Origin: a virus
Lineage: Duplodnaviria; Caudoviricetes
Strand: one strand, 5' to 3'
DNA length: 30,764 bases
IMG/VR virus record: IMGVR_UViG_3300032289_002421
Span: 1 to 30,764 of that record
Position numbers and translations under genes: made by a program. Below are positions 1 through 30,764 of this stretch, piece by piece. The notes under the pieces are model-generated. The model ran no database searches. It was given only the letters and a program-made list of their open reading frames with translations, and was not told the DNA's origin. Positions within the stretch are counted from its first letter, which is position 1, and every line of letters begins with the position of its first letter.

Positions 1-2
1 CT

Positions 3-1532: not shown

Positions 1533-1541
1533 TTACAACCT

Positions 1542-2812: not shown

Positions 2813-3342
2813 TATACATAACCCTCAATTAAAATGTTGACAGAGCCATTATCAAAAGTATCTGTGCTTGTAGTCGTAATTCTCAAGCGATCAACTGTTG
2901 CGGCCGTAGTTTTAACTCCAGAATTAATCGTCATTTGTGAAGTGGTTTGTCTTGTAACGCCATTTGAAACCCATAAATTTGATCCAAGCGTGATTATTGC
3001 TAAATGGCCAGTTGTATTTGTAGTGGAGTTATTACTAAATATTACAAACCCATTTGTTGCACTTGTACCTGTTGTCGACGACGCCGTAGTTATGTAAACT
3101 GTTGTCGACAAGTAACCGGTTGTTTCATAACCTGACGTTGTTCCTAATTGAATTAAAAGTTGCGCAGAGGCACTTAAAGAAACTTCATTAAATATAATTG
3201 TGATTTTTTTTGCCCAACTTGGTATGCCAGTAAAATCTATTGACGTCCCACTTGTTGTTGCTTTTGCTGTTTCAAGAAACATCAAACTATTTTTAATTCC
3301 GTCTAATGCAGAACCTGTATTGCCGCTTAAAACTAACGTCAT
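2812..3342 (-). CDS. Tail-tip/fibre-associated protein (paralog of 4405..4989)
   Basis: 176 aa, Thr/Ser/Gly-rich. Shares ATTSGT, IPSWAKKIT, DRLRITT and TFDxGSVNILIEG with 4405..4989. Confidence 0.65.
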   Translation of the reverse strand: MTLVLSGNTGSALDGIKNSLMFLETAKATTSGTSIDFTGIPSWAKKITIIFNEVSLSASAQLLIQLGTTSGYETTGYLSTTVYITTASSTTGTSATNGFVIFSNNSTTNTTGHLAIITLGSNLWVSNGVTRQTTSQMTINSGVKTTAATVDRLRITTTSTDTFDNGSVNILIEGYV

Positions 3343-3911
3343 TAGTCAATCCTCACAATTAAATTTCCTAACGGTATTTTGACTTCTGATTCCGGGGCAA
3401 CAGGATCCGGAGGTTTTGGTAGGATTGGGTCAGTTGGTAAAACTGGTTCATCAGGCACAACGGGGACTACAGGAATAATTGGTTCAGGAGGTTTTGGTTT
3501 TTCTGCTTTCAATTCTTTTAATTCGTCTAGTGTTGTTGCATCATCTGCAAGTTTTGTAATATCACGCAAACGCTTTTTTTCTTTGATAATTTCTGTTGTA
3601 TCACCATTAACTTCTAATGCTTTTAAATATTCCACATCTTGTGCCGCAAGTAATGGTTTGCGTTCTTCACGTAATCGTTGTTTCGTTATTTTTTTCGCTT
3701 TGTCAAAATTAATGTCGATTTTTTCTTGCACATGTTCCCACGCACTGCGGAATTCGCGGTCGTGTGGGAGTTCTGACACATCAACAATTTTATAATCAGT
3801 ATTCGGCGGCACATCTTTAGCAGCGATTTGTTCTATTGTTAACTCGCTGTCAGGTGAGGGAATTATGACTGAAATTCCGCCGTCGTTATTTTGATATACA
3901 ATACGTTTCAT
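3342..3911 (-). CDS. Putative tail fibre assembly/chaperone-like protein with Pro-rich C-terminal tail
   Basis: 189 aa. KRIVYQNNDGGISVIIP...DREFRSAW...RLREERKPLLAAQDVEY...KKRLRDIT resembles tail-assembly proteins found between fibre genes. Confidence 0.6.
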   Translation of the reverse strand: MKRIVYQNNDGGISVIIPSPDSELTIEQIAAKDVPPNTDYKIVDVSELPHDREFRSAWEHVQEKIDINFDKAKKITKQRLREERKPLLAAQDVEYLKALEVNGDTTEIIKEKKRLRDITKLADDATTLDELKELKAEKPKPPEPIIPVVPVVPDEPVLPTDPILPKPPDPVAPESEVKIPLGNLIVRID

Positions 3912-3919
3912 GATTTCCC

Positions 3920-4405
3920 CTAACGGAAAATAGCCACTAAAATTTGGTCATGATCAACCAGAGAACCTCCCGCAGAAGTCGAACTCACAAAACCAACAGT
4001 AATTTGTGCGGTTGTTGTTGTTTTTGTATTACTCGTCGATGCATTTTTAGCACCACATATAGCATAATTAGTACCAGTATATCCGCCTATACATGTTCCA
4101 ATTATTGTATAATTTGTATCAACCATAGCATTAGTAAAGTTAACGGTGTAGTCACCAACTCCATTATCAGTAATACTCGACACATTCCCACTTGCACGAA
4201 TTGCAACCGTGCCCGTACCATTAAAATTTACCCACGCACGACATCCATAAGCCGTTGCTACGGATCCATACCCGGAATTGAATTGCAAATTTCCGGAATT
4301 CACAGACAGGGCATCTGTTCCGTTATTTCGTAACGTAACGATTCCCGATGTGTCGGATGCAATTTCTAAACCCGTTGTGGTTGAAGCATTGAGTGTAACA
4401 GCCAT
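3920..4405 (-). CDS. Tail fibre-associated protein
   Basis: 161 aa. Contains RAWVNFNGTGTVAIRASGNVSSITDNGVGDYTVNFT, a beta-rich motif common at phage tail fibre tips. Confidence 0.7.
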   Translation of the reverse strand: MAVTLNASTTTGLEIASDTSGIVTLRNNGTDALSVNSGNLQFNSGYGSVATAYGCRAWVNFNGTGTVAIRASGNVSSITDNGVGDYTVNFTNAMVDTNYTIIGTCIGGYTGTNYAICGAKNASTSNTKTTTTAQITVGFVSSTSAGGSLVDHDQILVAIFR

Positions 4406-4989
4406 CAGTTGCCCTCAATTAAAATGTTGACAGATCCTGCATCGAATGTTGCGGTACCGCTAACTGTTGTAATTCGTAATCGGTCAATAATTGCAGTAGT
4501 AGTTTTACTACCCCCTCCTACCATAAAAGCATTTCCTATCCCAATATCAAACCCTGAATGTGAGCAGATATACGTTGAGCCACTAATCAAATTAATTAAA
4601 ACATTGGCCGTAAAAGTAGTAGCCGCGTTGTTATTATTAATAATAAACCCCGCCGTTGAGGTAATAGTATTCGTACCAGATCCCGAAGAATAGCCTGCCC
4701 CGCTTGAATACCCAGTGTTTTCTATGCTTCCAAATCCAATCTGAATTAGCATAGCTGATGCTGTTGCTGCGGTTGAAGTATTATTAAAAATCACAGTAAT
4801 TTTTTTTGCCCACGATGGGATATTTAAAAAATCTTTAAAAGTACCGCTAGTAGTTGCTTGAGATGTTTCTAGTTTTAATAATTGAATTGTCCCTGTTGCA
4901 GCTGGCAATTCTAAATTATTTGTCCCAGCAATTGCGGGCGTGTCTAGTGTGACCTGTCCGCTTGTTGCACCTTTTAAAATTATTGGCAT
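4405..4989 (-). CDS. Tail-tip/fibre-associated protein (paralog of 2812..3342)
   Basis: 194 aa. N-terminal LKGATSGQVTLDTPAIAGTNNLELPAATGT fibre motif; C-terminal domain homologous to 2812..3342. Confidence 0.65.
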   Translation of the reverse strand: MPIILKGATSGQVTLDTPAIAGTNNLELPAATGTIQLLKLETSQATTSGTFKDFLNIPSWAKKITVIFNNTSTAATASAMLIQIGFGSIENTGYSSGAGYSSGSGTNTITSTAGFIINNNNAATTFTANVLINLISGSTYICSHSGFDIGIGNAFMVGGGSKTTTAIIDRLRITTVSGTATFDAGSVNILIEGN

Positions 4990-4996
4990 AAATTCC

Positions 4997-6460
4997 TCAC
5001 AAAATAACCCAACGAGAATTGCTTGGGACAGTAACAGTAATCCCAGAATTAATCGTAATTGTTCCTGTGCTCATTGCGTTGTTATTTGTTGTGATAGTAT
5101 AATTTGTCGTGACAGTTTGGCCATTTTCGTAAAATATTGCATCACTGGCACCTCCTGTCGCACCGCCAATTGATGAAAGACTTGTGCCGTTATCGACAAA
5201 TAATCTTTTCGCATCCGAGGCAAAAAGAATGGTGCCTTCTTTGCGCGTCAGACTATTTAACGTTGATAGCGATGCCTTGGGTGTTGTGATGCGTGAGGTG
5301 TCCGATGCGGTGCCGCCATCAATATCTTTATTTGTAATTGTTTGCGAAGTTGTTGTTCCCACAGCAGTAAAATTTGCATCGGGTAACGTAACAGTCCGCG
5401 TTGTACCTGTTGTAATTCCTGCAACGTTAAATGTTAATTTTTTTGTTGGATCTGAATTATCCGTGATAAATGTTGTGGATGATTCTAATGATTTATTTTG
5501 TAATGTTTCAGAATTCGAACGCCCCACAAGTGTGACTGTTGCATCGGGAAGTGTGAATGTTCTTGCGGTTGCTGTGCTGATTTGTGACGCGTCAAATTTA
5601 GCGACTTTTGTTGAGTCAGATTGATTCACAATAGCCGTAGTGCTGTCAAATAAGAGTTTGTTTGATAATAATTGCGTCGCCGTTGTGCCGACAAGTGTTG
5701 AGTCGGAATCAGGAAATGCAAACGTGCGCGTGGTTGCAGTTGTAATTCCGCTCACATCAAATGTAATTTTTTTTGAATTGTCCGCGTTACTGATGACAAA
5801 TGTGGAATTATCAACCAAAGATTTGTTTGATAGTGTTTGGGTTGTTGCTGTTCCAACAATTGTCAAGTCAGCATCGGGAAATGATACAACGCGCGTAGTG
5901 GCGGTTGTCAGACCATTTAATTGAAATTGAATTTTTTTAGTGTTGTCTGCATTATTGATAAAATAATTGGCGTTATCAACAAGTGATTTATTTGTGAGAG
6001 TGTCCGCAGAGGATGCCGTAATCGGTACATCACCGCTTGCAACTGTGTTACTAATAAACTTCCAATCGCCTTGATAAAAAGCAATAATTATCTTCTGTTT
6101 ATTATTATTAATAACAAAAGAAGAATCACCGTTGATAGTGTTAGTTCCATTAGGAATAAGTGTAATATTATGAGTTGCGGCGTTTCCTGACTCATCACCA
6201 ATAAAAAAGATTTGATTTGCAACACCTGCTGGTAAATTCACAGTTGCAGCGCCTGCGTAATTAATCCCCACAACACAATCTGTCGCAGCACTCACAACTG
6301 TAGTCGCAACTGTTGAAATTCGAGTTGCTAGAAATTGTTTATTTGTTGTTTGCGCATTGCTTGCTAAATCAACGAGAAAATCTGTAAGCGACATCCAACC
6401 CGTTTCGCCTGATTCAGGAATACTATAATTTGTATTGTTCCAGGTGCGTTGTATGCTCAT
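4997..6460 (-). CDS. Tail fibre protein with four 55-aa repeats
   Basis: 487 aa, Thr-rich, with TLxNK-initiated repeats and a C-terminal FYENGQTVTTNYTIT...TVTVPSNSRWVIL fibre motif. Confidence 0.8.
   Translation of the reverse strand: MSIQRTWNNTNYSIPESGETGWMSLTDFLVDLASNAQTTNKQFLATRISTVATTVVSAATDCVVGINYAGAATVNLPAGVANQIFFIGDESGNAATHNITLIPNGTNTINGDSSFVINNNKQKIIIAFYQGDWKFISNTVASGDVPITASSADTLTNKSLVDNANYFINNADNTKKIQFQLNGLTTATTRVVSFPDADLTIVGTATTQTLSNKSLVDNSTFVISNADNSKKITFDVSGITTATTRTFAFPDSDSTLVGTTATQLLSNKLLFDSTTAIVNQSDSTKVAKFDASQISTATARTFTLPDATVTLVGRSNSETLQNKSLESSTTFITDNSDPTKKLTFNVAGITTGTTRTVTLPDANFTAVGTTTSQTITNKDIDGGTASDTSRITTPKASLSTLNSLTRKEGTILFASDAKRLFVDNGTSLSSIGGATGGASDAIFYENGQTVTTNYTITTNNNAMSTGTITINSGITVTVPSNSRWVIL
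5342..6001 (-). repeat. Four tandem 55-codon (165 bp) repeats within the tail fibre gene
   Basis: Units begin TLTNKSLVDN / TLSNKSLVDN / LLSNKLLFDS / TLQNKSLESS. Each contains a D-x-[ST]-K segment and T-x-T-x-R-x(4)-P-D...VG. Confidence 0.9.
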
Positions 6461-6858
6461 TTAGTTATTCCTTTTATTTTTTCAAAAGTTCTTAGGCCGC
6501 CAAGGCCAAGCATACCTAAAAGTACTGGCAAAATCTCATCAATTTTAAACACGGGCAATGCTGTAATTTGTTTATCAAACAAAGTTAAGATAAAAATAAA
6601 TAACGGTTGAAGTAAATAGTTATATCCAAAAATTAAACCACAAATCCACATGATACAAGGACGTGCTCCACTGATAAACACGTTGTCACTTGTAGCTTGT
6701 GCTTGGTTAATTTCCATTTGTTTAAAATCCGCTTCTTGAGCAAGTTTTATAAGTTCCGCCTGGGCTTTTTGCGCGTCTTCAGCGTTTGGAAATATTTTGT
6801 CAATAACGGTTGAGATAAGCGGGAAAAGTACAGGCGGCAGACTCATGATAGACCTCAA
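6457..6858 (-). CDS. Holin, GTA-type 3-TM family
   Basis: 133 aa with VIDKIFP, SGARPCIMWICG and LLGMLGLGGLRTFEKIKG, the signature motifs of the 'holin of 3TMs for gene-transfer release' family. Confidence 0.85.
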   Translation of the reverse strand: MRSIMSLPPVLFPLISTVIDKIFPNAEDAQKAQAELIKLAQEADFKQMEINQAQATSDNVFISGARPCIMWICGLIFGYNYLLQPLFIFILTLFDKQITALPVFKIDEILPVLLGMLGLGGLRTFEKIKGITK

Positions 6859-6860: not shown

Positions 6861-8207
6861 TTAAGAAGCGGCTTCGTCATTAATTCCTTCCAACAATCCG
6901 TTTTTTGCTGGGGAACGGCAGAACATATAAACATCACCGTAAGTATGGAACACATACGCACCTTGGTCTTGAAGTTGAAAGATTAGTTTTTCTTCGGGCA
7001 TACCCTCAATTTGTGTTGCAATATCCTGTGAACCGCTGCACATCCACTCGTCAGTTTTCAGTAACAGACTATCACCTTCCATAATGTAACGATGACCGAT
7101 AATCTCAAGGTCACCCTCTGCATATGCAAAGCGAATGGCTTTACCGCCATTGACAATTTCTGATTTATTGTACGAGTAGTCATACTGACGCGCTGCCAGT
7201 TCGCTTGCCACAATGTTATGAAATGTGCGTGGGTTTACATACACTTTTAAATCACCGGAAAGGCCGCCAGCATTGACCATGTCAGCAACAAATGATTCTA
7301 ATTTTGCAAATGTAAGCTTGCCAGTGATAGTGCCAACATTTCCTTTCCACAATGGGTACGTTGCGGCGTTGATATTAAAAAGTGTGCCGGTATTTTTGAG
7401 AATCTTTTTTATGCCTACCATCTCATTTGACACTTCCATTCCCTCAAATGCGAGAATGTGAGAGCCTGAACTTGAGGCAGCGACTGGTGTAAAGTCAACT
7501 TTTAAAATTCCAAGTGCAGAATCAGCACTAATGAGTTTTCCTTCTGCGACAACGCTTAAGTTTGAAGCGAGGAGTTGCTTGACTTTGACACCTTGCATAC
7601 CAACCCAAATACCGGATGCAAAATCTCCTGCATTTAATAAAATGTAATTATTGCCACTGCTGCTCAAAACTCCTGCGGTAAATGTAAGCGAGCCGTAAAG
7701 GGAACTGGTCAAAGTTCCGCCACCATTTGTAAATGATGCCCCGCGGTAAGTTGCTGTCATATAAGCAACGCGGCCAAGAAGTTTGGTGGTGTTTTGTCCG
7801 TGAATTTTGACAATTTCTTGAAAGCGTTTATGCGACAGCATATTGTTTCTGACAACGTGTTTCGTTGCTTCAACAAACGCTGCGTCATTGCCAAGCGACC
7901 TACTAATTGATTGCCAAGGAATGACAGAACGTAACACAGAAATTGACGGCGAAATTTCACTTTGACGGATTGCACCGGCGATTGCTGGGTTGATATTAAA
8001 CACCTCACCGCCAGAACCCGCAAATGTGATCCCAACTTCGGAACCCAGCACGATGGCTTCAATATATTTATCACCCACACGGCCTTTTTTTGTGTAAGCA
8101 ACTTCTTTGTTGATTAATAAATCGTCCATCGGCAATGCGGAAGTGTTCATTTGCCCATAGACGTCTTTAAAGATTTTAATGACTGACGAGCTACTTGTTT
8201 GTGACAT
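6861..8207 (-). CDS. Major capsid protein (HK97 fold, P22-coat-like)
   Basis: 448 aa following the scaffold and decoration genes. FKDVYG, GITFAG, LFNINAATYPLWK and VYVNPRTF segments fit this coat class. Confidence 0.8.
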   Translation of the reverse strand: MSQTSSSSVIKIFKDVYGQMNTSALPMDDLLINKEVAYTKKGRVGDKYIEAIVLGSEVGITFAGSGGEVFNINPAIAGAIRQSEISPSISVLRSVIPWQSISRSLGNDAAFVEATKHVVRNNMLSHKRFQEIVKIHGQNTTKLLGRVAYMTATYRGASFTNGGGTLTSSLYGSLTFTAGVLSSSGNNYILLNAGDFASGIWVGMQGVKVKQLLASNLSVVAEGKLISADSALGILKVDFTPVAASSSGSHILAFEGMEVSNEMVGIKKILKNTGTLFNINAATYPLWKGNVGTITGKLTFAKLESFVADMVNAGGLSGDLKVYVNPRTFHNIVASELAARQYDYSYNKSEIVNGGKAIRFAYAEGDLEIIGHRYIMEGDSLLLKTDEWMCSGSQDIATQIEGMPEEKLIFQLQDQGAYVFHTYGDVYMFCRSPAKNGLLEGINDEAAS

Positions 8208-15887: not shown

Positions 15888-15904
15888 AATTAGCACAAAT
15901 AATT

Positions 15905-16871: not shown

Positions 16872-17140
16872 AACACTCCTAAAAATTTGATTCAGAAAAA
16901 AAATTAAGCTAAACTTACTAAGAGATAGCTGCCTGCCAAAATTCAATCATCAAAATCCTACCTTATTATTTGACTTAACTTAATATGCCCACCAAAAAAT
17001 TACAGCTATCTTATCCAATTCATCACCTTGACAAAAATGCTCAAGTCAATTACTTAACAATTATCCTTCCTTGTTCAATATCTCTCTAGACTCACAGATT
17101 TCATCGCTCTGTGAGTTTTGTTATTTTAATTGGAGGTATA

Positions 17141-17446: not shown

Positions 17447-17456
17447 TGGAGTTTAA

Positions 17457-19770: not shown

Positions 19771-20018
19771 ACAACCGTGAAAAAATCCGCGCAATTATTG
19801 ACCAGCAAATACAAAAACTTTATGAAATTTCTGAAACTTCAAGCAAGCCATTATTTGATAAAGAAATTGACTCACTGGCTAAACTTGCAAAACTTGTTGA
19901 AGCAGAATCATTACTTGATAGCTTAAAAGACAAAACAAAATTTGATGATTTATCAGAAGAAGAATTGTTACTTCTTTATAATTTTAGAAAGAATCAACCC
20001 AATGGACAGAGTGACTGA
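19767..20018 (+). CDS. Candidate terminase small subunit
   Basis: 83 aa, helical, directly upstream of and overlapping terL, with a C-terminal DDLSEEELL. Positional inference. Confidence 0.4.
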   Translation: MNNREKIRAIIDQQIQKLYEISETSSKPLFDKEIDSLAKLAKLVEAESLLDSLKDKTKFDDLSEEELLLLYNFRKNQPNGQSD

Positions 20019-21399
20019 AAAATTGTGGCAACGAGGCGAAATGAGCTTTTTGTTGCATGCAGCACAGAAACAAGTCTATGACAAAATATTAACAAGCAAC
20101 GAGCAATTGCATTTGTTTTTAGGCTCAAGACAGTTTGGCAAATCATTTCTCTCTCTTGCTCTTGGCTTTCAACACGTCGCAAGCCCGCACACGATTAATA
20201 AACTCGTAAAGATTGCAGCGGGTACACTCAAAGCGACAAACGATATCGTGAACGATAATATGAAATTTTTTATTGTGAGTGCACCACCGGGTCACATCAA
20301 ACCGACAAAATCTGACAAGCGTTACAAAGTTGGAACAAATGGCGAGATACGCTTGGGGATGATGGAACGTGCGCACGTCGATTCATTGCGCGGTGGGAAT
20401 GCTGGGCTTTACATTCTTGAAGAAGCAGCAGCAGCGGTGAGTAGTGATGATTTTGAGTACGCATACAAAGCCGTAATCATTCCGCAGCTACTTCGCTCCG
20501 GGGGTAAGATTGTTATCATCACCACGCCCTCAAAAAACCCTGATCATTACGTGCACTCTGTGATTCAACCGCAGTGTGAAAAAAAAGGCACACTTTACAA
20601 AGCGACTATCTTTGACAATCCACAACTCACAACAGAGCAAATACAAAACGCTATTAATGCGTATGGTGGCGCTGACACTTTAGATTTTAGGCGTGAGTAC
20701 CTGTGCGAAGTTGTGCGCGATGGACGCTCATTGATTACGCCTGCATTTTCTGATGTGCGGCATATTACAAATCAAAGCTATGAGAGTGTGTATGCAGCAA
20801 ACTGTTGGATAATCGGAGACACGGGAGGCATACGTGATAAGCACGTCTTACAAGTTTGGGGTCATCGAATTACAGACAATAAAAAATTAATCATTGCAGA
20901 GGTGATGTTTGATTCCAATACCAACACGATAGTTTTGGGTGATATGATTAAACAACTCCGCACAAAATATCAAATAAAACCCTATCACATTTTTTTAGAC
21001 TGCCATGGTCAGACTCAAGTCGATCTCAATACTTTGTGTGATGTTTCTGTTACGTTACCGCCGAAAGTTGATCGAGACAATGCAATTATGGCTTTGAATT
21101 CGGCGTTCTTTCAAGATGAGATTTTTATCAATAAATCATGTGAGTTTACAATAAAAAGTTTACGCTCTTGTATGTTTAATAAAACACGCACAGACTTTGA
21201 ACGAACAGATGAGTTAGGCCATGCTGATGCTGTGATGTGTGCTGTCTATGGTTTGCGTGTTGAAAAATTTATTGAGCGCTCTAAAATCATCACTAACTTT
21301 TCAAACTTTAGTCAAATGAGCAATCAATCACCACAGACAAATTTAGAAAAAGTCACAAAAGCCCTTAGACCCTTTCACAAAAGCCTAGCAAATTTTTAA
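20002..21399 (+). CDS. terL: Terminase large subunit
   Basis: Q motif (LLHAAQ), Walker A GSRQFGKS, Walker B LYILEEAA, coupling motif ITTP, FRREYLCE, and nuclease acidic motifs GDTG and HADAV. The likely start is the ATG at 20002 (track ORF from 19942). Confidence 0.92.
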   Translation: MDRVTEKLWQRGEMSFLLHAAQKQVYDKILTSNEQLHLFLGSRQFGKSFLSLALGFQHVASPHTINKLVKIAAGTLKATNDIVNDNMKFFIVSAPPGHIKPTKSDKRYKVGTNGEIRLGMMERAHVDSLRGGNAGLYILEEAAAAVSSDDFEYAYKAVIIPQLLRSGGKIVIITTPSKNPDHYVHSVIQPQCEKKGTLYKATIFDNPQLTTEQIQNAINAYGGADTLDFRREYLCEVVRDGRSLITPAFSDVRHITNQSYESVYAANCWIIGDTGGIRDKHVLQVWGHRITDNKKLIIAEVMFDSNTNTIVLGDMIKQLRTKYQIKPYHIFLDCHGQTQVDLNTLCDVSVTLPPKVDRDNAIMALNSAFFQDEIFINKSCEFTIKSLRSCMFNKTRTDFERTDELGHADAVMCAVYGLRVEKFIERSKIITNFSNFSQMSNQSPQTNLEKVTKALRPFHKSLANF

Positions 21400-22282: not shown

Positions 22283-22864
22283 GTGTTAAGTTATTACGAT
22301 TTGACTAGACAAGTGCATTATGATCCCAAAACAGGAATTTTTACCTGGAAGATAAAAAAACGAAAAACTCGAAAAGGATCAGAAGCTGGTTTCTATGCGC
22401 CAAGTCGTCTGTACCGCTACATCAGAATTGATGGTAAAGATTATACTTGTCAGCGTATTGCATGGTTTTATATGACAAAAACTTGGCCAACTAAATTTGT
22501 TGGCTTTAGAAATAAAAATCCGATGGATTTACGATTTTTAAATTTAATCCATTGTGATAAATATGATTTGCAATCCAACAGATCCAATTCACAACACCTC
22601 ACAGGTGCACATTTCAGAAAAGAAAACAAAACCAAGCCGTGGAATTCAAGAATTTACTACAAAGGTAAGTGCATTTCCCTTGGTTATTTTAAAACAGAAA
22701 AAGAAGCACACAGGGCACACACAAGAGCAAAAAAGGATATACAAAGTGGAATTATCGACTTTGCTAAAGAAGTACCGAGTAAATGGCGAGACCTTTTATC
22801 ACCACGCAGGACGGTATGCGAATCAGCCCGTGGAGAAACGCAAACTGGTTCAAGAAATTCTTGA
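22283..22864 (+). CDS. HNH-AP2 homing-endonuclease-like protein, catalytically degenerate
   Basis: YDPKTGIFTW, YRYIRIDGKDY, RIAWFYMT..WP and the AP2 domain (WNSRIYYKGKCISLGYFKTEKEAHRA) are typical. The usual IDHIN...DNR motif reads VGFRN...DLR. Confidence 0.8.
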   Translation: MLSYYDLTRQVHYDPKTGIFTWKIKKRKTRKGSEAGFYAPSRLYRYIRIDGKDYTCQRIAWFYMTKTWPTKFVGFRNKNPMDLRFLNLIHCDKYDLQSNRSNSQHLTGAHFRKENKTKPWNSRIYYKGKCISLGYFKTEKEAHRAHTRAKKDIQSGIIDFAKEVPSKWRDLLSPRRTVCESARGETQTGSRNS

Positions 22865-24260
22865 AATGGGCGCAGAGCTTGAAGAAGTTGAACCAATAAT
22901 CGAAATCCTCAAGCAAAAATGTATTGAACGGCAAAAATTTTCCGATCAATCTTTTGATGAGATTGAACAAGTCATCCATTCATTTCATTACGTCATCGAT
23001 AAATTCCAAATTGTTTTAAATAAAAATAATCCTGAACAAAAACTTATCTATTTGATTGAGGGAACACGAGCAAAACTATTGGCATCCTCACTCCCTGGCA
23101 CAGATGAGCTAGTGCGGTTGCTTGCAAATATTTATCCTGAAGATATGGCGTTATTGCATAAAGAAATTCAATTGCGCACAGAAAAAAAGAAACGACACCA
23201 TGTGACAATCGAGAGTTGCATTAAATTATTAGTCAACTCGATTATCAATGCACTATACACAAAAACTCCAATGGCAATTAATTATGATATCAAACCATTA
23301 ACACTATCAAATAGTTCCGAATTTTCAGCGCACAAGTTGAATTATGAATACAAAGAAACACCACAACTCAATCCACATCTTAAAGAATTATTAGGGCGTA
23401 TCACAGACAGTGATCGGTTGTGTGCGTTACTTTGGATTTGTTTTAATGGCCATAAATCGCCGTATGTTATTTATTTATACGGCGAGGGCGGCGAGGGGAA
23501 ATCATCATTTACTGGAATGTTGCGGCGAAAAATTGGCAAAGATGTTGTAGCAAGCTTTGATAGCTCAAATCAATTTTCAAATTTTGGCATGTTCAATAAA
23601 GCGCTAATTGTTCTCTCTGAAAATAACAATCCCCGAGTTTTGCAAAAAGCAGAAGTGAAACAATTAACAGGAGATAGTATTGTCAGCATTGAACAAAAAG
23701 GAAAAGATAGGTTCACAGGAACATTGTCAGGATTATTGATAATTGACTCAAACGTACTCCCTGAAATAGACGGAGATTCCTACGAACTTCGAAGACTTCG
23801 TTTATTTAAATTTGAACCATTACAAGCCACAGAATTTTATTCTAAAGAAATGTACGAGAGTTTTTTAGGAGAAAATTTTAATGACTTTTTAAATTATTGC
23901 AGAATTTGTTACGAAAACATCGGGCAAAATTGGACTGTGCTACCTAGCCCAAATCAACAAGCACAATTTAAAAGTTTACAAGACAAAGCACAGCTTGTCA
24001 TGAATCAAGAATTGTGGGCTAAACTGATTCGCTCTGGAGAATTTGCAATTGATCCCCGTTCTGAAATTGAAGAATCCACATTTTATAAAGCATTGCAAAA
24101 CATTACAAACCTCAAAGAATTTAAAAAGAATTACGGACTTTCTAACTTTTTAAAATATTTAAAGCATGAACACGCCATCAAATCCGAGCATGGAAGAATT
24201 TATGGTTTGAAAGCCGTTGATAAAAAAGGCGTGTATTATGACCCATACCATACAAATTAA
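22746..24260 (+). CDS. Superfamily 3 (D5/P4-type) DNA helicase
   Basis: Walker A YGEGGEGKSSF, Walker B LIVLSE, KQLTGD, motif C LIIDSN and an LRRL arginine finger. The frame is open from 22554; the GTG at 22746 has an AAGGA SD (alternative ATG at 22866). Confidence 0.88.
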   Translation: MELSTLLKKYRVNGETFYHHAGRYANQPVEKRKLVQEILEMGAELEEVEPIIEILKQKCIERQKFSDQSFDEIEQVIHSFHYVIDKFQIVLNKNNPEQKLIYLIEGTRAKLLASSLPGTDELVRLLANIYPEDMALLHKEIQLRTEKKKRHHVTIESCIKLLVNSIINALYTKTPMAINYDIKPLTLSNSSEFSAHKLNYEYKETPQLNPHLKELLGRITDSDRLCALLWICFNGHKSPYVIYLYGEGGEGKSSFTGMLRRKIGKDVVASFDSSNQFSNFGMFNKALIVLSENNNPRVLQKAEVKQLTGDSIVSIEQKGKDRFTGTLSGLLIIDSNVLPEIDGDSYELRRLRLFKFEPLQATEFYSKEMYESFLGENFNDFLNYCRICYENIGQNWTVLPSPNQQAQFKSLQDKAQLVMNQELWAKLIRSGEFAIDPRSEIEESTFYKALQNITNLKEFKKNYGLSNFLKYLKHEHAIKSEHGRIYGLKAVDKKGVYYDPYHTN

Positions 24261-24269
24261 AGGTAAAGT

Positions 24270-24734
24270 ATGCCATTAATTACAAGAGACAATTATTTAA
24301 AAATGAGAGATATTACATACCATAAAGATTGGAATAAAAAACTTGAAAAAACAATGGAAGCCACAATCAATCAAATCAATGAATTTTTAAAAGAAATTAA
24401 ATTTTCAAATGTGGAAGTTGTAAGCGGCTGGCGACCACAACAATTGAATGAAAGCATTAAAAATGCCGCTACGCAAAGTAAACATATTACATGCCAGGCT
24501 GTTGATTTACTGGATTTAAAACCGTTTCCATTAATGCATGCAATCTTAGAGAATTTAATTGCGGCAGAAACTCATGGTGTTTACTTTGAAGATTTTTCAT
24601 ATACGCCAAGCTGGGTTCATATACAAGTTGTGCCGCCTAAATCGTTTCGTAGGGTATTTGTTCCAAATTCCAATCCACCTCTTGTTGCTAATAAATGGAA
24701 AGGTCTTGAGTATTATGACAGACAGTTTATATAA
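24270..24734 (+). CDS. Peptidase M15 family endolysin
   Basis: SGWRP..LN, SKHITCQAVD (SxHxxxxAxD) and WVHIQ zinc-ligand motifs. Confidence 0.88.
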   Translation: MPLITRDNYLKMRDITYHKDWNKKLEKTMEATINQINEFLKEIKFSNVEVVSGWRPQQLNESIKNAATQSKHITCQAVDLLDLKPFPLMHAILENLIAAETHGVYFEDFSYTPSWVHIQVVPPKSFRRVFVPNSNPPLVANKWKGLEYYDRQFI

Positions 24735-25272
24735 AGTTGGCGATAAATTTAAAATAATTGAAACAACAAGTGATAAGTTTTTAATCGGAGATATCTTTAA
24801 ACTGCATGAGATCCGTTTAGGTCATTATCCATATTTATTAAAAAGAAAAAGTTATTCGACTATTTTTGAAATTGAGCTCAATGCTGAACTCGTGAGTGTT
24901 TTCGGTGTAAAATTTGAGCCTCTCAAAAAACTTTTTGATGGAATTAGCACAAAAGATGATATGACGCTCAAACCACATTATCGAGCGATTAGTCCTTATT
25001 TATTGCAGAATATGGCGATGATTTTTAGACAAGGAATTAAAAAGCACGGCCTCGATTCCCATCGTAATATTGAAGCAAAACATGCTGGAGAAATTATTGA
25101 TGCATTGTTGCGACACATTGAAAAAATCAGGCTTGGGGAATTTTTTGATTTAGAAAGTAAGCAACCACACCTTGCACATGCTGGCTGTAATCTTTCAATT
25201 CTCATGAATATCTATGCAAAATATGGTGCCGAAGAATTGATTAAATCAATAAATGGGGAATTGAATGAGTGA
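24715..25272 (+). CDS. DUF5664-like dATP/dGTP diphosphohydrolase-domain protein
   Basis: GIKKHG, DALLRHI and DLESKQPHLAHAGCNLSIL match the GA.KYG...ALxRH...D.ESG..HLAHA..N pattern. The likely start is the ATG at 24715. Confidence 0.75.
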   Translation: MTDSLYKVGDKFKIIETTSDKFLIGDIFKLHEIRLGHYPYLLKRKSYSTIFEIELNAELVSVFGVKFEPLKKLFDGISTKDDMTLKPHYRAISPYLLQNMAMIFRQGIKKHGLDSHRNIEAKHAGEIIDALLRHIEKIRLGEFFDLESKQPHLAHAGCNLSILMNIYAKYGAEELIKSINGELNE

Positions 25273-27199
25273 AGCTGTGCTTGATTTTGAATTCTTTGGT
25301 GCAAACAACGAACACCCAACGTTAGTGTGTGCGGCACTAGCACATAAGACCTACTGGCTCTTGGATAACTCGGATACAACACGTTTTAAAAATGATTTAA
25401 AAAAATTTAAAAAGCTGATTGTTTATTACGGAGTTGCAGAATCTCGTTGTTTACTTGCTCTTAAAATCAATCCCTTAAATTTTGAATGGGTTGATTTGTA
25501 TGCAGAGTTTAAGATGTTGCAAAACTCAAACAATCAATATCTTTATGGCACTTATATTGATAGTGCAGGGCTTAAGAAATTCTCAGAACCCAAAAATTTT
25601 CGTGAATATATAAATCAAGTAAATAACGAAGATGACGATGAAGAAATGCTGAAGCATAACAAAGTACCCTCAAATTTAATTAATGCAGTATTTAAAATGA
25701 CGCAACACGTTTTAAGTTCTTTGCAAAAAAATCAAATGAGAGAAATCATCATTTCAGGAAACGTCGAAAATATCACAAACCATAAAAAAGAAATTATGGA
25801 ATATTGCTTGAGTGATGTTTCGTTTCTTTATGCTGTGCGTAATAAAATTGAGTTCGAGTATTATAGGCTAGGACTACGAAACTTTGAAGAATCTATACTT
25901 GATCGTGGTTTGTATTCAGCGTGCATTGGGATTTGTGAGCAGATAGGAATTCCCATCAATAAACAACTGTTGGATAAAATTATTGCAAAGACTCCTGAAA
26001 TTATTAAAGACTCAAGAGATGCTGTCAATGCATTATCCTCATTTCCAATTTATATCCCTGAAATTCCCGCCACAGAAAAACATTTTAAAAATGGTGCTGT
26101 AAAAATCATCAAAAGCAAACCCGAACGACGCGACAACAAAGCAATTCAAAAACTCATTGAAAGTTTTGATATTCCCGCTTGGCCAAAAACAGAAACGGGC
26201 TTTTATAAAACAGATTCTGACACGATAGAAAGTTATAGAACGATTCCCGTTATTGAAGAGATGTATAAGTGCAACAAAACCGAATCATCTTTAAAATGGT
26301 TTCGTGAAAAAAATTCCGACGGGTTTTTTGCCGCTTATGATTTTAAAAATGACGTTGTCAGACCCTTTTATGGAATTTACGGCACACAGACGGGACGTAA
26401 TGCCGCCAAAGCGAAAACGTACCCATTGGCGATGAGTTCCTGGTTGCGTGCGATTATTCAACCAAAACCAGGAACTGTCATCATTGCAGCAGACTTTAGT
26501 CAACAAGAAATTGCTGTTGCAGCGTGGCTCTCTCAAGACAAGAATTTAATCAACGCTTACAATTCAGGTGATGTGTACTTAGAGTTTGCAAAACAAGCGG
26601 GCGCTGTGCCCATGGATGCAACAAAGAAAACCCACGAGCGCGAGCGCGACCTTTTTAAATCAACAAAGCTTGGCTTGCAGTATGGGATGGGTGCTGAAAA
26701 GTTACGATTGAAGCTCACATACGATTGCAAACGGACTGTGTCGCTTGAAGAGACTCAAGCATTAATTACAGCACATAAAACTGTGTATGCAGAGTACTGG
26801 AATTGGGTTTATGAAATTAGCAAGCAATACAAAAGCCGCGTGCCGCTTGTCACATCTGATGGTTGGGTTTTGTGGACTGACAACCCCATTATGACAAGCG
26901 TGCGCAACTTCCACGTTCAAGCACACAGTGCCAGCATTACGCGTCAAGCTGTAGTCGATGCGTGCAAAGCAAATTTGAAAGTGATGTCAAGTTTGCATGA
27001 CGCGCTTTATATTATCTCGCAAGAACCGACAAAAGATTTGATTATTCTCAAGCAAATCATGCGCAACGCAACAGAAAAAATACTCGGTGAAAACTGTATA
27101 GAAATACGAATTGATGATAAAATCTTAACAGATTCAGAAATATGGGTTGAAAAAAAAGGACAAGCCGATTGGTCTAAAATCAAAACACACATCATTTGA
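25265..27199 (+). CDS. polA: Phage DNA polymerase, family A
   Basis: 644 aa with ExoI LDFEF, ExoIII YCLSD, TQTGR, motif A DFSQQE, motif B RDLFKSTKLGLQYG and motif C LHDA. Confidence 0.93.
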   Translation: MSEAVLDFEFFGANNEHPTLVCAALAHKTYWLLDNSDTTRFKNDLKKFKKLIVYYGVAESRCLLALKINPLNFEWVDLYAEFKMLQNSNNQYLYGTYIDSAGLKKFSEPKNFREYINQVNNEDDDEEMLKHNKVPSNLINAVFKMTQHVLSSLQKNQMREIIISGNVENITNHKKEIMEYCLSDVSFLYAVRNKIEFEYYRLGLRNFEESILDRGLYSACIGICEQIGIPINKQLLDKIIAKTPEIIKDSRDAVNALSSFPIYIPEIPATEKHFKNGAVKIIKSKPERRDNKAIQKLIESFDIPAWPKTETGFYKTDSDTIESYRTIPVIEEMYKCNKTESSLKWFREKNSDGFFAAYDFKNDVVRPFYGIYGTQTGRNAAKAKTYPLAMSSWLRAIIQPKPGTVIIAADFSQQEIAVAAWLSQDKNLINAYNSGDVYLEFAKQAGAVPMDATKKTHERERDLFKSTKLGLQYGMGAEKLRLKLTYDCKRTVSLEETQALITAHKTVYAEYWNWVYEISKQYKSRVPLVTSDGWVLWTDNPIMTSVRNFHVQAHSASITRQAVVDACKANLKVMSSLHDALYIISQEPTKDLIILKQIMRNATEKILGENCIEIRIDDKILTDSEIWVEKKGQADWSKIKTHII

Positions 27200-27208
27200 G
27201 AAAGGTTA

Positions 27209-27565
27209 TTGATGCAAACAGAATTTGTCAAAACTGAAAGCAAAACGATTTTTAAAAAAGCGCCATCGCTGAAAAATCAACCAGTAAATGGTGAGCTCTT
27301 TACTCTGAATGAAGCAGTGACAGGGACACTCTCAAATATTTTTGAGAATCAAGACGGGCAAATTATTTTTCTCAAAACACCCACTGGAGATGTGGGAGTT
27401 CCTTTGTATTCAGGGCTGAAATTTTTTATTTATCATAAGAAGTATAAATACGGCGATATTGAGAAAGTGGGCAAAGAAAAAGGCGATCCAATTACGATTG
27501 TTTATCTTGGTACGAAAATGAGCCCAAAATCGAATAGACTCATGCACAACTTTTTTGTGGAGTGA
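27209..27565 (+). CDS. Hypothetical protein, possibly OB-fold ssDNA-binding
   Basis: 118 aa between the polymerase and exonuclease. GDPITIVYLGTKMSPKSNRLMHNFFV resembles phage SSB C-terminal strands. Confidence 0.45.
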   Translation: MMQTEFVKTESKTIFKKAPSLKNQPVNGELFTLNEAVTGTLSNIFENQDGQIIFLKTPTGDVGVPLYSGLKFFIYHKKYKYGDIEKVGKEKGDPITIVYLGTKMSPKSNRLMHNFFVE

Positions 27566-28356
27566 ATACTTTGACTGATGCTGATTATTACAAGCTCGAT
27601 TGTCTTAGCTTTTCAAAACTCAAATACATTTTACATTCACCGCGTAAATTTTTTCAAAATCAAGAAACACCTTTTGCGGGAACGGCTGCAACAAATTTAG
27701 GCAATGCGATTCACTGTTGGATACAAAATCAGCAAGAGCGCGTGAGCTTTCTGCCTGACTTGTCTCACGTCAAAACGCGCGACGGCAGAATAGCCCGAAC
27801 ACCGCAAAGCACAACCGAGGGAAAGCAAATCATTGAAGACTTTAAAAAAACTGTGCCGGCAGACAATTTTATTTTGTCTTGCGATTGTCTCCCTATTTTG
27901 ATTAATCTCTATAATCATTATAAACAGAATTACGAAATTCAAGAAATTATGAGCGACTTCATGAATTTTGAAACGCCTTACTTTGCAGAAATTGACGATT
28001 TAAAATTTAAGGGCAAGTTAGACGCGGAAAATCGCAACTATATTATCGATTTTAAAACAACGTACAAACCCGCGTCAAAATATTCTGTTGCAAAACATCT
28101 CATATACGACGAGTATTATCATATGCAACTTGCAATCTATGGGTTGCTAAAAGCACGCAACGAAGAAAAAGATTTTAGAGATTATCATTACAAAATTATT
28201 TTCTTTGAAACCGAGCCACCGTATGATGTAAAAATGTACACAATAAGTCATTTTACAATTCAGCAAGGGTTGGATTTACTCACTTCTGCTATCAATAAAT
28301 ACAAACACTATATCATCAATAAAAACCCTCTCTATGAGTTGAGCGAAACGATATGA
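27562..28356 (+). CDS. PD-(D/E)XK exonuclease (RecE/ExoVIII-like, DUF3799)
   Basis: LSFSKLK...SP, GNAIH, KGKLD, IIDFKTT and YHMQLAIY motifs. Confidence 0.88.
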   Translation: MNTLTDADYYKLDCLSFSKLKYILHSPRKFFQNQETPFAGTAATNLGNAIHCWIQNQQERVSFLPDLSHVKTRDGRIARTPQSTTEGKQIIEDFKKTVPADNFILSCDCLPILINLYNHYKQNYEIQEIMSDFMNFETPYFAEIDDLKFKGKLDAENRNYIIDFKTTYKPASKYSVAKHLIYDEYYHMQLAIYGLLKARNEEKDFRDYHYKIIFFETEPPYDVKMYTISHFTIQQGLDLLTSAINKYKHYIINKNPLYELSETI

Positions 28357-28835
28357 TAAAAATTCCTACAATTATTGCAATCGACCCCGCGTCAAATAAA
28401 GCGGGAGTTGCATTGTATTATAACGAAATTATCCGCTCGGCATTATTGACGGGCTATGGGAATTGGACGCAAAGAATCACACAACAGCGCCAACAGCTCG
28501 AATTATTTTTAAATCATTATTTACCGGAAAATCAAATTATCAATCATCTTGTTGTAGAGAACGTTGTAGGTTTTCGCAATTCAAAGCTTAGTTATTCTGT
28601 GGGTGCGTTGTGCTCATTGCCATGCATTCAGAGTGAACTAAACCTGATGGCACCATCTTGTTGGAAGAAAATTGTGAAAAAATGTGGCGGCGGAAAAATC
28701 CAAAAAGGGTTTGCAGCGTTACGTTATGTGCGGCCGGCGTACCCGCAAGTGTCTGATGATGAGGCCGACGCTATCTTAATGTTACTTGCTTATCTTGAGA
28801 AAGGCTTTACAGATGAACAGTATACCGATTACTAA
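28353..28835 (+). CDS. RuvC-like Holliday junction resolvase
   Basis: IIAIDPASNKAGVA, LVVE, PSCWKK and DDEADAI motifs. Confidence 0.85.
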   Translation: MIKIPTIIAIDPASNKAGVALYYNEIIRSALLTGYGNWTQRITQQRQQLELFLNHYLPENQIINHLVVENVVGFRNSKLSYSVGALCSLPCIQSELNLMAPSCWKKIVKKCGGGKIQKGFAALRYVRPAYPQVSDDEADAILMLLAYLEKGFTDEQYTDY

Positions 28836-29403
28836 TATCTTATTTTTAGATCTCGAAACAACAGGGCTTGATTGTGCAAAGCATTATATTTTAGAAGTTG
28901 CAATTCTTCCAGCACAATTGCATGAAGAAAACTTTTTCTGTAATAAAGAGAATTTGTTTACGGCTCTGTTGAACTTTCACGTTGAAAATTTCAAAGAGAA
29001 TTTTGACCCAAAAGCTCTTGAAATGCACGAAACAAATAATTTGATTCAAGATATTTTAAATTCTGATATTAAAAAGTGGGAACTAAAAGAACTCGAGCAA
29101 GAGTTGATTAAACAAGTCAATAATACTTTTGGAAAGTATGCAATGGGCATTCAATTAGCCGGAAATTCCGTGCATTTTGATTTGCAATTTATCAAACATC
29201 ATATGCCCACATTTGCAAAACGTTTGAGTTATCGAATTTTAGATATGAGTACATTCCGCACACTCGCAACAGCACTTTGTAATTATAAATCAGAACTCAA
29301 CCCAGCGCACAGAGCTAAAGAAGATGTTTTGTATTCTTACAGTTTAATGCTTGATTTTATCAAAAAGTTGAGACACAGCGAGACTAATCGAAGCTTAAAT
29401 TAA
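28813..29403 (+). CDS. orn: Oligoribonuclease-like DEDDh exonuclease
   Basis: FLDLETTGLD, EMH, AGNSVHFDLQF...MP, SYRILDMST and HRAKEDV are collinear with bacterial Orn motifs. The likely start is the ATG at 28813. Confidence 0.8.
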   Translation: MNSIPITNILFLDLETTGLDCAKHYILEVAILPAQLHEENFFCNKENLFTALLNFHVENFKENFDPKALEMHETNNLIQDILNSDIKKWELKELEQELIKQVNNTFGKYAMGIQLAGNSVHFDLQFIKHHMPTFAKRLSYRILDMSTFRTLATALCNYKSELNPAHRAKEDVLYSYSLMLDFIKKLRHSETNRSLN

Positions 29404-30531
29404 TCCGCCATCTTTTCTAACAAACAATTTTGAATTTTCTATTTTATATTCAAAATTGGTATTTTCTGTTACGTAAGCATTTTTAATCAATTCAAGAGCA
29501 GAGCGTAAAGACCTGTTGAATTCTTTTTGAATCAAACCGCTTCTTGATAAGTCGTGTAAATATTCAAGCGAAAAAGGGATGGGTTCTTTATGTGAAGCGT
29601 AAAAATGAAAAATCCATAAAGCCAATTGATTTTGGCCAAGTTGCTTTCTAATATTGATATTGATAAATGTATAGTCATCTGTATCTCTAAACACGCAAAG
29701 TAAATGATTATCAAATTCTAAATAATAAGCGTTGGGTTCATCTTCGATCAAAGCAAACGATTGAATAAGATGACTCATATACATTGCGTGTTGCTTGCCT
29801 TTGACTTGCACAACCGCGAGTACAAGTTTAAAAATTCGATTTTTCACTTGGTCGCGGGTTTCTGTACTATCTGTATACCCTAAAAATTTACACACTTCAT
29901 AAATTGTCACACGGACACGATTACTTCCTTTAGACTTTTCTTTAAATAAATAGACCAATGCATCCCAAACTATGAGATCCAATTGGTTTAATTCTTCTCC
30001 CGAAAACAGCACTTGATACTGCGACATCGACAGTATCTCTTTATTTTTGACAGTAAGATGAACCCCTCTTTTTTGAATTCCGAACAAAGCAGAACGTAAA
30101 AAAACGTTGGGAATTGCTCGACTTAAAGGTTCTGTGACGGGGATAAATTCTGTTGTCGGAAGAGCATTAATTTTTTCTTTGATGCTATCAAAATGTTTAT
30201 TGAGATAATCTTTGAACTCTTCAGTATTATTCTTTAAATAGTCGTAGAGCCTGTAAGGTTTTGTTTTCAAGTCGCTAATTGTTTCATGTGTCGTGAGTAT
30301 CTTTTCTTCTAAAAATCGAAACCCTAAAATTCCAAAATCATTGAGACAAAGATTGACGACGTGTTTAAATGCATTGTAACTAAAATAATTAAAATTGCCT
30401 TTAAAATCTTGAAAGTTGTCAAAAAACAAAGCCCCACAAATACCCATCGCTTGGTTAAAGTGTGGATGTTGTTGAGTATTGTCGTTTTTAATTGAGATTC
30501 TCTTGACTGTCTGACTTTTTGTAATTAGCAT
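29395..30531 (-). CDS. trfA: TrfA-family plasmid replication initiator
   Basis: RAIPNVFLRSALFG, FSGEELNQLDLIVW and LALWIFHFYASHKEPIPFSLEYLHDLS match TrfA-family motifs. GGAGG SD; adjacent to the iteron array. Confidence 0.88.
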   Translation of the reverse strand: MLITKSQTVKRISIKNDNTQQHPHFNQAMGICGALFFDNFQDFKGNFNYFSYNAFKHVVNLCLNDFGILGFRFLEEKILTTHETISDLKTKPYRLYDYLKNNTEEFKDYLNKHFDSIKEKINALPTTEFIPVTEPLSRAIPNVFLRSALFGIQKRGVHLTVKNKEILSMSQYQVLFSGEELNQLDLIVWDALVYLFKEKSKGSNRVRVTIYEVCKFLGYTDSTETRDQVKNRIFKLVLAVVQVKGKQHAMYMSHLIQSFALIEDEPNAYYLEFDNHLLCVFRDTDDYTFININIRKQLGQNQLALWIFHFYASHKEPIPFSLEYLHDLSRSGLIQKEFNRSLRSALELIKNAYVTENTNFEYKIENSKLFVRKDGGLI

Positions 30532-30687
30532 AAATCAACCTCCGTGTTTATAGCTATTTTAAGAAAATTAAATATACACAGAGGCTTTTTTTTTGCCAAA
30601 TTTTTCTTCTATAAAAATTCCTGCACAATTTTTAATCAAATATATCGCATCATTTTTAAGCATATTTAAAACCCACTAGATCGGGGT

Positions 30688-30764
30688 TTATACACCCACT
30701 ACCGACTTGATTATACACCCACTACCGACTTGATTATACACCCACTACCGACTTGATTATACAC
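30688..30764 (+). repeat. Iteron array (23-bp direct repeats), putative oriV, truncated by window end
   Basis: TTATACACCCACTACCGACTTGA at 30688, 30711 and 30734, plus a partial copy at 30757. An in-phase degenerate copy (ACCCACTA core) lies at 30665-30687. AT-rich flank; about 160 bp upstream of trfA. Confidence 0.9.

Follow-up and report, generated by a model that had tools for sequence, protein, structure and literature searches.

The virus record IMGVR_UViG_3300032289_002421, analysed here over its whole length of 30,764 nucleotides (the window), belongs to a podovirus-like phage that carries a trfA gene with iterons in a swappable slot. With a probability of roughly 0.7, the phage persists as an unintegrated plasmid prophage and uses its own helicase and polymerase for lytic replication. 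A first-pass annotation had proposed such a plasmid prophage from the letters alone. Comparison with relatives supports the proposal, as integrase-bearing sisters have an empty slot and homologues of an alternative slot gene (ORF208) lie on a circular phage-plasmid, but neither parAB nor a repressor was detected. The element has virion, packaging and lysis genes, a plasmid initiator, and a circular map without an integrase; a partition system, expected in large phage-plasmids but not required, was not found.

The window is the whole record, yet not the whole genome: it makes up ~78% of a circular-mapping genome of 39–40 kb. The proposed check of circularity had a positive outcome, with the map closing through the direct terminal repeats of a complete relative (G001) and through the circular gene order of G003 and run X5. 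The virus is from freshwater, and its host likely belongs to a family inferred to be Silvanigrellaceae, placed through CRISPR spacers (for a second CRISPR array, the spacer match was obtained with the repeat border re-set by 5 nt). The element itself was absent from all bacterial genomes searched, and its carriers are viral or metagenomic contigs in every record, with no RNA holder listed. No trfA carrier among the 19 of 38 members listed is longer than the phage genome (longest 40,074), and neither is any carrier of the 33 ORF208 clusters (longest 39,878); short carrier contigs are also expected if the sequenced DNA came from virions alone. Cumulative GC skew of G001 marked no origin, and scans for promoters and terminators gave none above shuffles.

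The virion genes noted earlier on the same contig were found (terminase, capsid, tail fibre, holin, and endolysin; Table 1). At the left end of the window the first gene is cut off, and in relatives the map continues to portal-like and injection-protein-like genes, named solely by position and size, and back to the iterons. The capsid protein has 259 homologues. No tail sheath was matched among the window’s genes, and the one tape-measure match, on a 106-aa protein, was below the cut-off. The morphotype is read here from the genes, among which the weak podovirus capsid match suggests a podovirus-like particle.

Table 1. Features of the window, with the evidence for each assignment.
Feature	Position	Strand	Evidence
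Holin, tail-fibre-like and other virion genes	1..6858	-	Profile and PHROG matches
Major capsid protein, podovirus type (weak)	6861..8207	-	NF033394 E 1.8e-6, below cut-off
Small serine recombinase, resolvase/invertase type, 213 aa	10679..11320	-	PF00239 E 8.5e-31
Terminase large subunit	19942..21399	+	PF03237 E 1.6e-9; PHROG 2
SF3 helicase, D5/P4-like C-terminal part	22746..24260 (long frame from 22554)	+	DUF5906 E 2.9e-14
Peptidase M15, probable endolysin	24270..24734	+	Profile and PHROG matches
dATP/dGTP diphosphohydrolase-domain protein	24559..25272	+	PF18909 E 4.8e-15
Family A DNA polymerase with 3'-5' exonuclease region	25265..27199	+	PF00476 E 1.8e-21; A/B/C-like motifs
Small conserved protein, possibly SSB	27209..27565	+	Language-model lead only
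PD-(D/E)XK exonuclease VIII-like	27562..28356	+	DUF3799 E 6.8e-17; PHROG 412
RuvC-like Holliday junction resolvase	28353..28835	+	PHROG 827 E 1.7e-7
DEDD 3'-5' exonuclease, oligoribonuclease-like; left border of swappable slot	28786..29403	+	Family profile
TrfA-family replication initiator, 378 aa, extra N-terminal helical region	29395..30531	-	PF07042, plasmid tblastn, predicted fold
Iteron array, cut by contig end	30673..30764	-	Three identical 23-bp units and one variant

The operon described in the first-pass annotation (SF3 helicase, family A polymerase, exonuclease, RuvC-like resolvase) is present at its places and in its order and converges on trfA, and the profile searches suggested there recovered TrfA, DNA_pol_A, and terminase. 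However, its gene list had left out the M15 peptidase and the dATP/dGTP diphosphohydrolase between helicase and polymerase, and its SSB-like label could not be sustained, as the small protein has no family match. The language-model lead for that protein consists of Atlas values of 0.92–0.93 to phage clusters, in one of which phi29 SSB stands on 15% of members. The helicase has its Walker A motif at residue 310 and likely starts at an in-frame GTG at 22746; the alignment with the homologue in CP017838 begins at residue 64 of the long frame. Family profile searches recognised no primase domain in the window or in complete G001. The DEDD exonuclease reached 77.7 bits against the oligoribonuclease model, under its cut-off of 106. 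CP017838 (Proteobacteria phage MWH-Nonnen-W8red 1, host Silvanigrella aquatica; an unannotated, partial record) is largely syntenic with the window (PolA 54%, capsid 59%, terminase 38%, helicase 43%), but it has a tyrosine recombinase, no match to trfA, ORF208, or the resolvase, and its helicase follows the exonuclease.

The TrfA-family assignment, also made in the first-pass annotation, was borne out by the PF07042 profile (E 1.6e-10; 41 bits against a cut-off of 22), by tblastn, in which 29 of the 30 plasmid matches listed are annotated TrfA, and by a predicted fold that matches RctB (E 1e-7), RepE, and TrfA 9a0w, consistent with an initiator of two winged-helix domains. Identity to the TrfA proteins of PLSDB is only 26–33% over the C-terminal two thirds among the matches listed, and an IncP-1 (RK2-type) plasmid was rejected on this divergence and on the lack of conjugation and partition genes. 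Two leads from Arsenophonus/Piscirickettsia were likewise rejected as TrfA phage-plasmids: paPv9 is a type IV secretion plasmid whose annotation holds no phage genes, and pPSLF89-4 is conjugative, and its prophage is incomplete (PMC6963756). Among 50,697 records of isolated phages, no TrfA match was found. The profile matched three of 131 Oligoflexia genomes, the sole strong match being a 3-kb contig without phage genes.

Adjoining the initiator gene, the perfect 23-bp direct repeats reported earlier were confirmed (longest perfect match run 54 nt, against ≤14 in 100 shuffles), with the same period as the “23 bp iteron sequence” of RK2 TrfA (PMC8034659). Five assemblies have 2 to 7 units per array, counts that assembly may have collapsed. 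Arrays of 22–23-bp units accompany the TrfA homologues in all six loci examined on contigs that also carry ParA, MobA, or Tra genes, and an AT-rich TTTAATC motif is common to the phage and those plasmid-like loci. One relative’s contig (L001) extends past the window’s end into a conserved AT-rich stretch beyond the iterons (GC 0.18–0.20, ~100 bp from the array), in which four regular 13-mers were not seen and which may be the unwinding element. The slot has no perfect E. coli-type DnaA box and scattered one-mismatch matches, by a consensus that is E. coli’s and may not be the host’s.

What is new here is that trfA and its iterons fill a swappable slot. The cassette occupies one fixed position, at which relatives hold the unrelated ~208-aa ORF208 with 11-bp repeats; G003 (trfA) and complete G001 (ORF208) are 90–96% identical except at this slot. 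Homology between ORF208 and TrfA was not detectable (probability 0.6%, E 0.092), and ORF208 had no family match. Its predicted fold weakly resembles a winged helix (Foldseek E 0.14; Z ~6) and has a MarR-like look; fold searches gave no clear family, with coiled coil filling the match list, and all Atlas matches were under 0.9. Of 131 Oligoflexia genomes, three have homologues, in each case with upstream repeats and on a phage contig that also encodes ParA (ParB in two); two Pigmentibacter ruber plasmids have them as well. In pGTC16762-2, a complete circular P. ruber phage-plasmid, the homologue lies directly before parA-parB, behind 11-bp repeats. Given that parA accompanies its homologues on phage contigs and that parAB directly follows one of them on the circular phage-plasmid, ORF208 is likely a second, undescribed replication initiator.

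By analogy with RK2 (PMC4980987, PMC8034659), TrfA would bind the 23-bp iterons, open the AT-rich element next to them, and load DnaB helicase and the replisome of the host; in the lytic phase, replication would be driven by the phage’s own helicase and polymerase. ORF208 may be the alternative initiator in the same slot, and the small serine recombinase, a candidate dimer resolvase, would resolve dimers. The search for parAB past the right edge came up empty, with neither ParA nor ParB in the window, G001, or G003 (tblastn, Walker-A scan), and inheritance would therefore depend on moderate copy number, together with a BrnT/BrnA-like toxin-antitoxin pair in some strains. This pair is present in G001, G002, and G004, but absent from the window. 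No family match to a repressor was found in the window or complete G001, where many small genes lack annotation. There is a precedent in phage Miko, in which deletion of repA left lytic growth intact and abolished stable lysogeny (PMC7157519).

A broader reading, to which we give slightly less than even odds, is that two unrelated plasmid replicons alternate at the one slot in a single population of freshwater podophages. One would be TrfA with its 23-bp iterons; the other would be an undescribed initiator of ~208 aa, built of winged helix and coiled coil and paired with 11-bp iterons, and the common replicon of Silvanigrellaceae phage-plasmids. Swapping and fast iteron change would yield compatible variants sharing a cell, and the prophage would be kept without a partition system or recognisable repressor.

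Alternatively, the cassette could supply an origin and initiator for early lytic replication only, in a phage that is virulent or merely chronic and forms no true prophage. This would agree with the lack of a recognised repressor, parAB, or primase and with the exclusively viral or metagenomic records, and an initiator that recruits the helicase and primase of the host would make up for the unrecognised primase. We nevertheless consider it unlikely, as the same PolA/helicase module is found in sisters that have an integrase instead of any slot gene: CP017838 and G138:C6 (2/2) have a tyrosine integrase and a gap-free empty slot, an anticorrelation that comes from two distant relatives at 40–60% protein identity, one with N gaps. 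In the window, G001, and G003 no tyrosine integrase was matched, in line with the first-pass annotation for the window. G138 was missed by a short-pattern capsid search of genome contigs and later found by a profile search, so that the earlier blank reflects a limit of sensitivity. In addition, pGTC16762-2, with its ORF208 homologue next to parAB, also encodes a distinct HTH_36 protein of 409 aa, which adjoins an S24 repressor and is presumably a lambda-O-like lytic initiator.

It is also conceivable, at distinctly poor odds, that the cassette does not serve replication and acts as cargo, as a regulator, or in exclusion, with its protein and repeats hindering co-infecting relatives or resident plasmids. 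Iteron units differ between relatives, and their middles vary among alleles in which TrfA is ~90% identical; the cassette moves between backbones, since trfA is near-identical and its flanks diverged in run X10; and ORF208 has its MarR-like look. Yet the slot is filled in all eight non-integrating contigs that span it (window, L001, L002, L035, L036, L006, L007, and run contigs), the AT-rich element beyond the iterons is kept in three alleles, and trfA is intact in four alleles, with more synonymous than non-synonymous codon changes in 6/6 pairs. Integration through the small serine recombinase, with the TrfA cassette secondary, is very improbable. The recombinase is kept in the window, G001, G002, and G004, has no match in the two integrase-bearing relatives, and gives weak matches to integrase-type models; however, it consists of a resolvase domain and a short HTH only, its best model is of the invertase type, and no listed allele has a contig that exceeds the phage genome in length. 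Finally, an assembly chimera at the exonuclease/trfA junction, raised in the first-pass annotation and suggested by a window end inside the repeat array and by near-identical genomes lacking trfA, is already refuted, because the same junction recurs in independent assemblies (L001, L002, L035, L036; 90–100% protein identity), genomes without trfA hold another cassette at this place, and public runs of other studies bridge the junction (by a single contig in 3/4 runs, one of them a possible source, and across a diverged flank in the fourth).

The plasmid-prophage lifestyle itself is known, and the novelty lies in the type of replicon (TrfA), in its podovirus setting, and in the family of the host. 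Cluster A mycobacteriophages are siphoviruses of Actinobacteria, P1, a myovirus of 94 kb, has a partition system and uses the host polymerase, and Carjivirus communis (crAssphage) has a genome of ~97 kb. In cluster A (Miko, Jeeves, RedRock), the integration cassette is swapped for repA/parABS in related genomes (PMC7157519), and the novelty suggested in the first-pass annotation, which did not recognise the combination from a characterised phage, was too strong, because these phages also have polymerase I. Like our phage and its relatives, the group has more than one replication system (RepA or RNA); lysogeny there, but not lysis, requires repA, and the genome segments carry a labelled DNA polymerase I gene (figure legend, PMC7157519). 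In contrast, parABS is present in all of them and iterons were not found (PMC7157519), whereas our podovirus-like phage has TrfA or ORF208 with repeat arrays, no parAB, and a slot that differs from the place of its sisters’ integrase. The P1 group similarly has two replicase families (IncY, p0111) at the same genome position, an iteron-type initiator, and separate plasmid and lytic replication (PMC7969092; PMC10983915). Carjivirus communis also combines its own replication genes with plasmid-type initiators and has been proposed to persist as a plasmid, but its initiators are RepL-type and it is a gut phage of Bacteroidota (PMC10983915). With the RK2/IncP-1 replicon, the phage shares a TrfA-family initiator, a 23-bp iteron unit, and an AT-rich element beside the array (PMC4980987, PMC8034659), but it has a different iteron sequence, no perfect DnaA box, and no conjugation or partition genes. 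Podoviridae are few among the phage-plasmids of Pfeifer et al., whose main text has no occurrence of TrfA, and PMC12217456 has nothing on the polymerases of phage-plasmids.

With this phage, the phage-plasmids gain a podovirus-like member that is small and encodes its own polymerase, as well as a replicon of the TrfA type. Integration and plasmid carriage appear as alternatives to each other within a single phage lineage, from a phylum that has been little studied. Of more use is ORF208, the other gene of the slot, which can be tested directly: it is a candidate new initiator family with its own binding repeats, on complete plasmids without a named Rep, and its cassette could supply replicons for Silvanigrellaceae genetics.

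The window is the complete virus record (30,764 bases); from left to right it carries virion genes, accessory genes, the terminase gene and a rightward replication operon. The first-pass annotation had this helicase/polymerase operon converging on a TrfA-family gene, and profile matches and gene order bear it out: the 378-aa minus-strand gene that meets the operon has a product above the Pfam TrfA cut-off. Helicase, PolA, exonuclease and RuvC-like gene names held, and the SSB-like label is a lead only. The trfA product has matches in 457 plasmid records, annotated TrfA in 29 of the 30 listed, and none among 50,697 phage records; its predicted structure (mean pLDDT 76.7) resembles RctB, RepE and TrfA. 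The perfect 23-bp direct repeats described upstream of the gene were recovered as three identical units and one variant, in an array cut by the contig end; the perfect repeat run is 54 nt, and 100 shuffles gave no more than 14. For RK2, contacts of TrfA with an iteron unit of 23 bp have been described (PMC8034659). In bacterial assemblies, 21 loci carry the nearest TrfA homologues; ParA, MobA or Tra genes adjoin the homologue in 7 of the 10 scanned, 22-23-bp arrays occur in all six searched for repeats, and an AT-rich TTTAATC motif is common to three phage alleles and all five bacterial loci with sequence past the array. Among the phage alleles, GTGTATA and a terminal GG are constant in the iteron unit and its middle varies; no perfect DnaA box was found. 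By their sequence, the repeats appear to behave like iterons.

The near relatives G001 and G002 lack trfA and carry in its position, after the DEDD exonuclease gene, a gene of ~208 aa (ORF208) with short upstream repeats. The trfA-bearing relative G003 and the ORF208-bearing G001 are 90-96% identical on either side of a 1.9-kb break; the slot is swappable between trfA and ORF208 cassettes. Two clusters, with 38 members in all, represent the trfA allele, and relatives of ORF208 at 68-100% form 33 clusters. ORF208 has no detectable homology to TrfA and no family match; its model combines a coiled coil with a small N-terminal domain that weakly matches winged-helix structures. Of 131 Oligoflexia genomes searched, three contain a homologue; in every case the contig also encodes terminase, portal, tail sheath and ParA, two of the three adding ParB, and repeats lie upstream of the gene, with a clear 11-bp period in two. 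Two of 72,556 plasmids, both from Pigmentibacter ruber, also have a homologue. On the complete circular pGTC16762-2, the homologue has 11-bp repeats upstream and is immediately followed by parA and parB; the 70 genes scanned of the 102 on this plasmid include neither a plasmid Rep family nor an integrase, and a 409-aa HTH_36 protein, which looks like a lambda-O-type lytic initiator, adjoins an S24 repressor. Given this gene context (phage contigs with ParA, and the parAB neighbour on pGTC16762-2), ORF208 is likely a plasmid-mode initiator, a centromere-binding or regulatory role being less likely. Across the family, a PPDTP motif is invariant, and the 11-bp upstream repeats differ in sequence in every element.

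pGTC16762-2 (AP029161.1; loci L071 and L072), filed as a plasmid, looks like a myovirus-type phage-plasmid with ParA, and contigs G138:C8, G130:C30 and G136:C111 of three bacterial genomes resemble such elements; the literature searched holds no description of any of these as phage-plasmids. Besides its ORF208 homologue, plasmid pGTC16762-1 has a CRISPR-Cas9 locus of type II.

Our preferred reading, at a probability of roughly 0.7, is that the slot cassette replicates the element in plasmid mode and the phage helicase and polymerase serve lytic growth, much as the first-pass annotation proposed. The injected genome would circularise, and TrfA (ORF208 in other strains) would bind its own repeats, open the AT-rich element and recruit the host helicase and replisome on the model of RK2, for which TrfA-type origin opening and such recruitment are described (PMC4980987). 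The resolvase would keep the genome monomeric, and lytic growth would run on the phage's own two enzymes.

The nearest named phage, CP017838 from Silvanigrella aquatica (PolA 54%, capsid 59%), and a prophage of bacterial genome G138, which lies within a long contig with host-like genes on its flanks, have the same polymerase and helicase as the window, plus a tyrosine integrase; their slot is gap-free, under 270 bases, and without TrfA or ORF208. Because these relatives share the enzymes and have an empty slot, the lytic module would work without a slot gene, and it is unlikely that the cassette is a lytic initiator only. Less probable again is that the cassette is non-replicative cargo or an exclusion device. 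The two tyrosine integrases have no match in the window, G001 or G003, in agreement with the earlier statement that the window has no integrase; judging by these two relatives, both distant and one of them with N gaps outside the slot, presence of a slot gene goes with absence of integration. A small serine recombinase is present in the window, G001, G002 and G004, and integration through it seems highly improbable. CP017838 also contains an exact duplication beside N gaps, probably an assembly artefact.

The search for parAB came back empty in the window, G001 and G003. Of toxin-antitoxin genes, also sought, a pair of BrnT toxin and probable antitoxin is shared at 100% identity by G001, G002 and G004; the window lacks this pair. 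Family searches recognised no primase among the window genes and no repressor, and none of the bacterial genomes searched was found to contain the element.

An assembly chimera at the exonuclease/trfA junction can be set aside on independent assemblies and public runs: the junction (29395-29403), flagged for a continuity check, recurs in four other assemblies (L001, 100% identical; L002, L035 and L036, TrfA identity 90-91%) and is bridged by one contig in three of four public runs examined, one of them a possible source of the window; in the fourth, a single contig contains both sides and has a diverged flank. Beyond the repeats, L001, L002 and L035 run into putative injection-protein and portal genes, named by size and position with no family match, and L002 continues to the tail gene at the start of the window (93% over window 1-921). 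In public run X5, an 11,855-base contig begins at the array, and a contig of equal length and depth covers window 133-2821. From the L002 gene order and the X5 contigs, the map closes to a circle of about 39-40 kb, answering the circularity check, with trfA between the lytic replication genes and the virion genes. The complete relative G001 has 40,322 bases and direct terminal repeats.

In bacterial genome G128, 8 of 23 type I-F spacers match the phage group at up to 5 mismatches, four of them matching the window with 1-3 (shuffled spacers, 0 of 93), and the type II array, counted after its repeat border was re-set, gives 4 of 7 at up to 4 mismatches, two of them matching the window. G128 belongs to one family with G006, G130, G136 and G138, and from the named relatives we infer Silvanigrellaceae as the host family. 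Freshwater metagenomes from two or more studies contain near-identical DNA.

Diphosphohydrolase/polymerase pairs occur in base-modifying phages; the DpoZ match of the window's PolA is weak, far under cut-off, and no PurZ match was found among the window genes scanned. G001 has an extra Eco57I-like gene. The 41-bp repeats may mark a site of recombination or protein binding. At the tail-fibre-like genes, one run jumps over 2821-4412 and a second steps back 1,590, which suggests that a tail-fibre cassette is deleted and duplicated within the population.

Coordinates of features in the window and in related elements
Feature	Location	Remarks
Terminase	window 19942-21399	
Replication operon, rightward		SF3 helicase, M15 peptidase, dATP/dGTP diphosphohydrolase, family A polymerase, small unknown gene, exonuclease VIII-like, RuvC-like, DEDD exonuclease
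dATP/dGTP diphosphohydrolase and PolA genes	window 24559-27199	fused in operon
DNA methyltransferase-like genes	window 11906-12730, 15905-16546	two
Low-GC region	window 12891-18405	GC 0.27-0.32; variable among relatives
Imperfect 41-bp direct repeats	window 11637-11759	three; upstream of serine recombinase and methyltransferase
CRISPR spacer target	window 11741-11772	one spacer
199-aa gene	window 19171-19770	ahead of terminase; domain common to large tail gene at left end
Tail-fibre-like genes	window 2812-3342, 4405-4989	duplicated, ~1,590 bases apart
ORF208-family loci	L007:14140-14766; L057:1471-2076; L071:17850-18485; L073:22513-23166	unannotated proteins, ~200-230 aa
BrnT and likely antitoxin	L037:18592-19159	
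CRISPR-Cas9 locus, pGTC16762-1	L073:38321-42857	type II
Exact duplication, CP017838	L008:22520-25777, 31582-34839	3,258 bases
CRISPR arrays, G128	L089:8314-9730, L090:6137-6631	I-F and II systems; 12 of 30 spacers aimed at phage group

The TrfA gene with its repeat array in this phage genome is real, and the proposed lifestyle is of a known kind. Cluster A mycobacteriophages have a replicon in place of the integration cassette, and presumably, going by a figure legend, use their own polymerase I. There, parABS together with RepA or an RNA origin is described as taking the cassette's place, and repA as required for lysogeny only (PMC7157519). Two replicase families at one position are reported for P1-group elements, as is the scarcity of podoviruses among phage-plasmids (PMC7969092), and crAssphage has been proposed as a RepL phage-plasmid (PMC10983915). 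The view that the combination is unlike any characterised phage thus holds in part: the integrase-for-replicon exchange is known from Cluster A, but our open-access-weighted search turned up no paper dealing with TrfA phage-plasmids or with phage-plasmids of Silvanigrellaceae, though supplementary tables of PMC7969092 may list TrfA-bearing elements. The part most worth following is the ORF208 family, which may be a new family of initiators in plasmids and phage-plasmids of Silvanigrellaceae.
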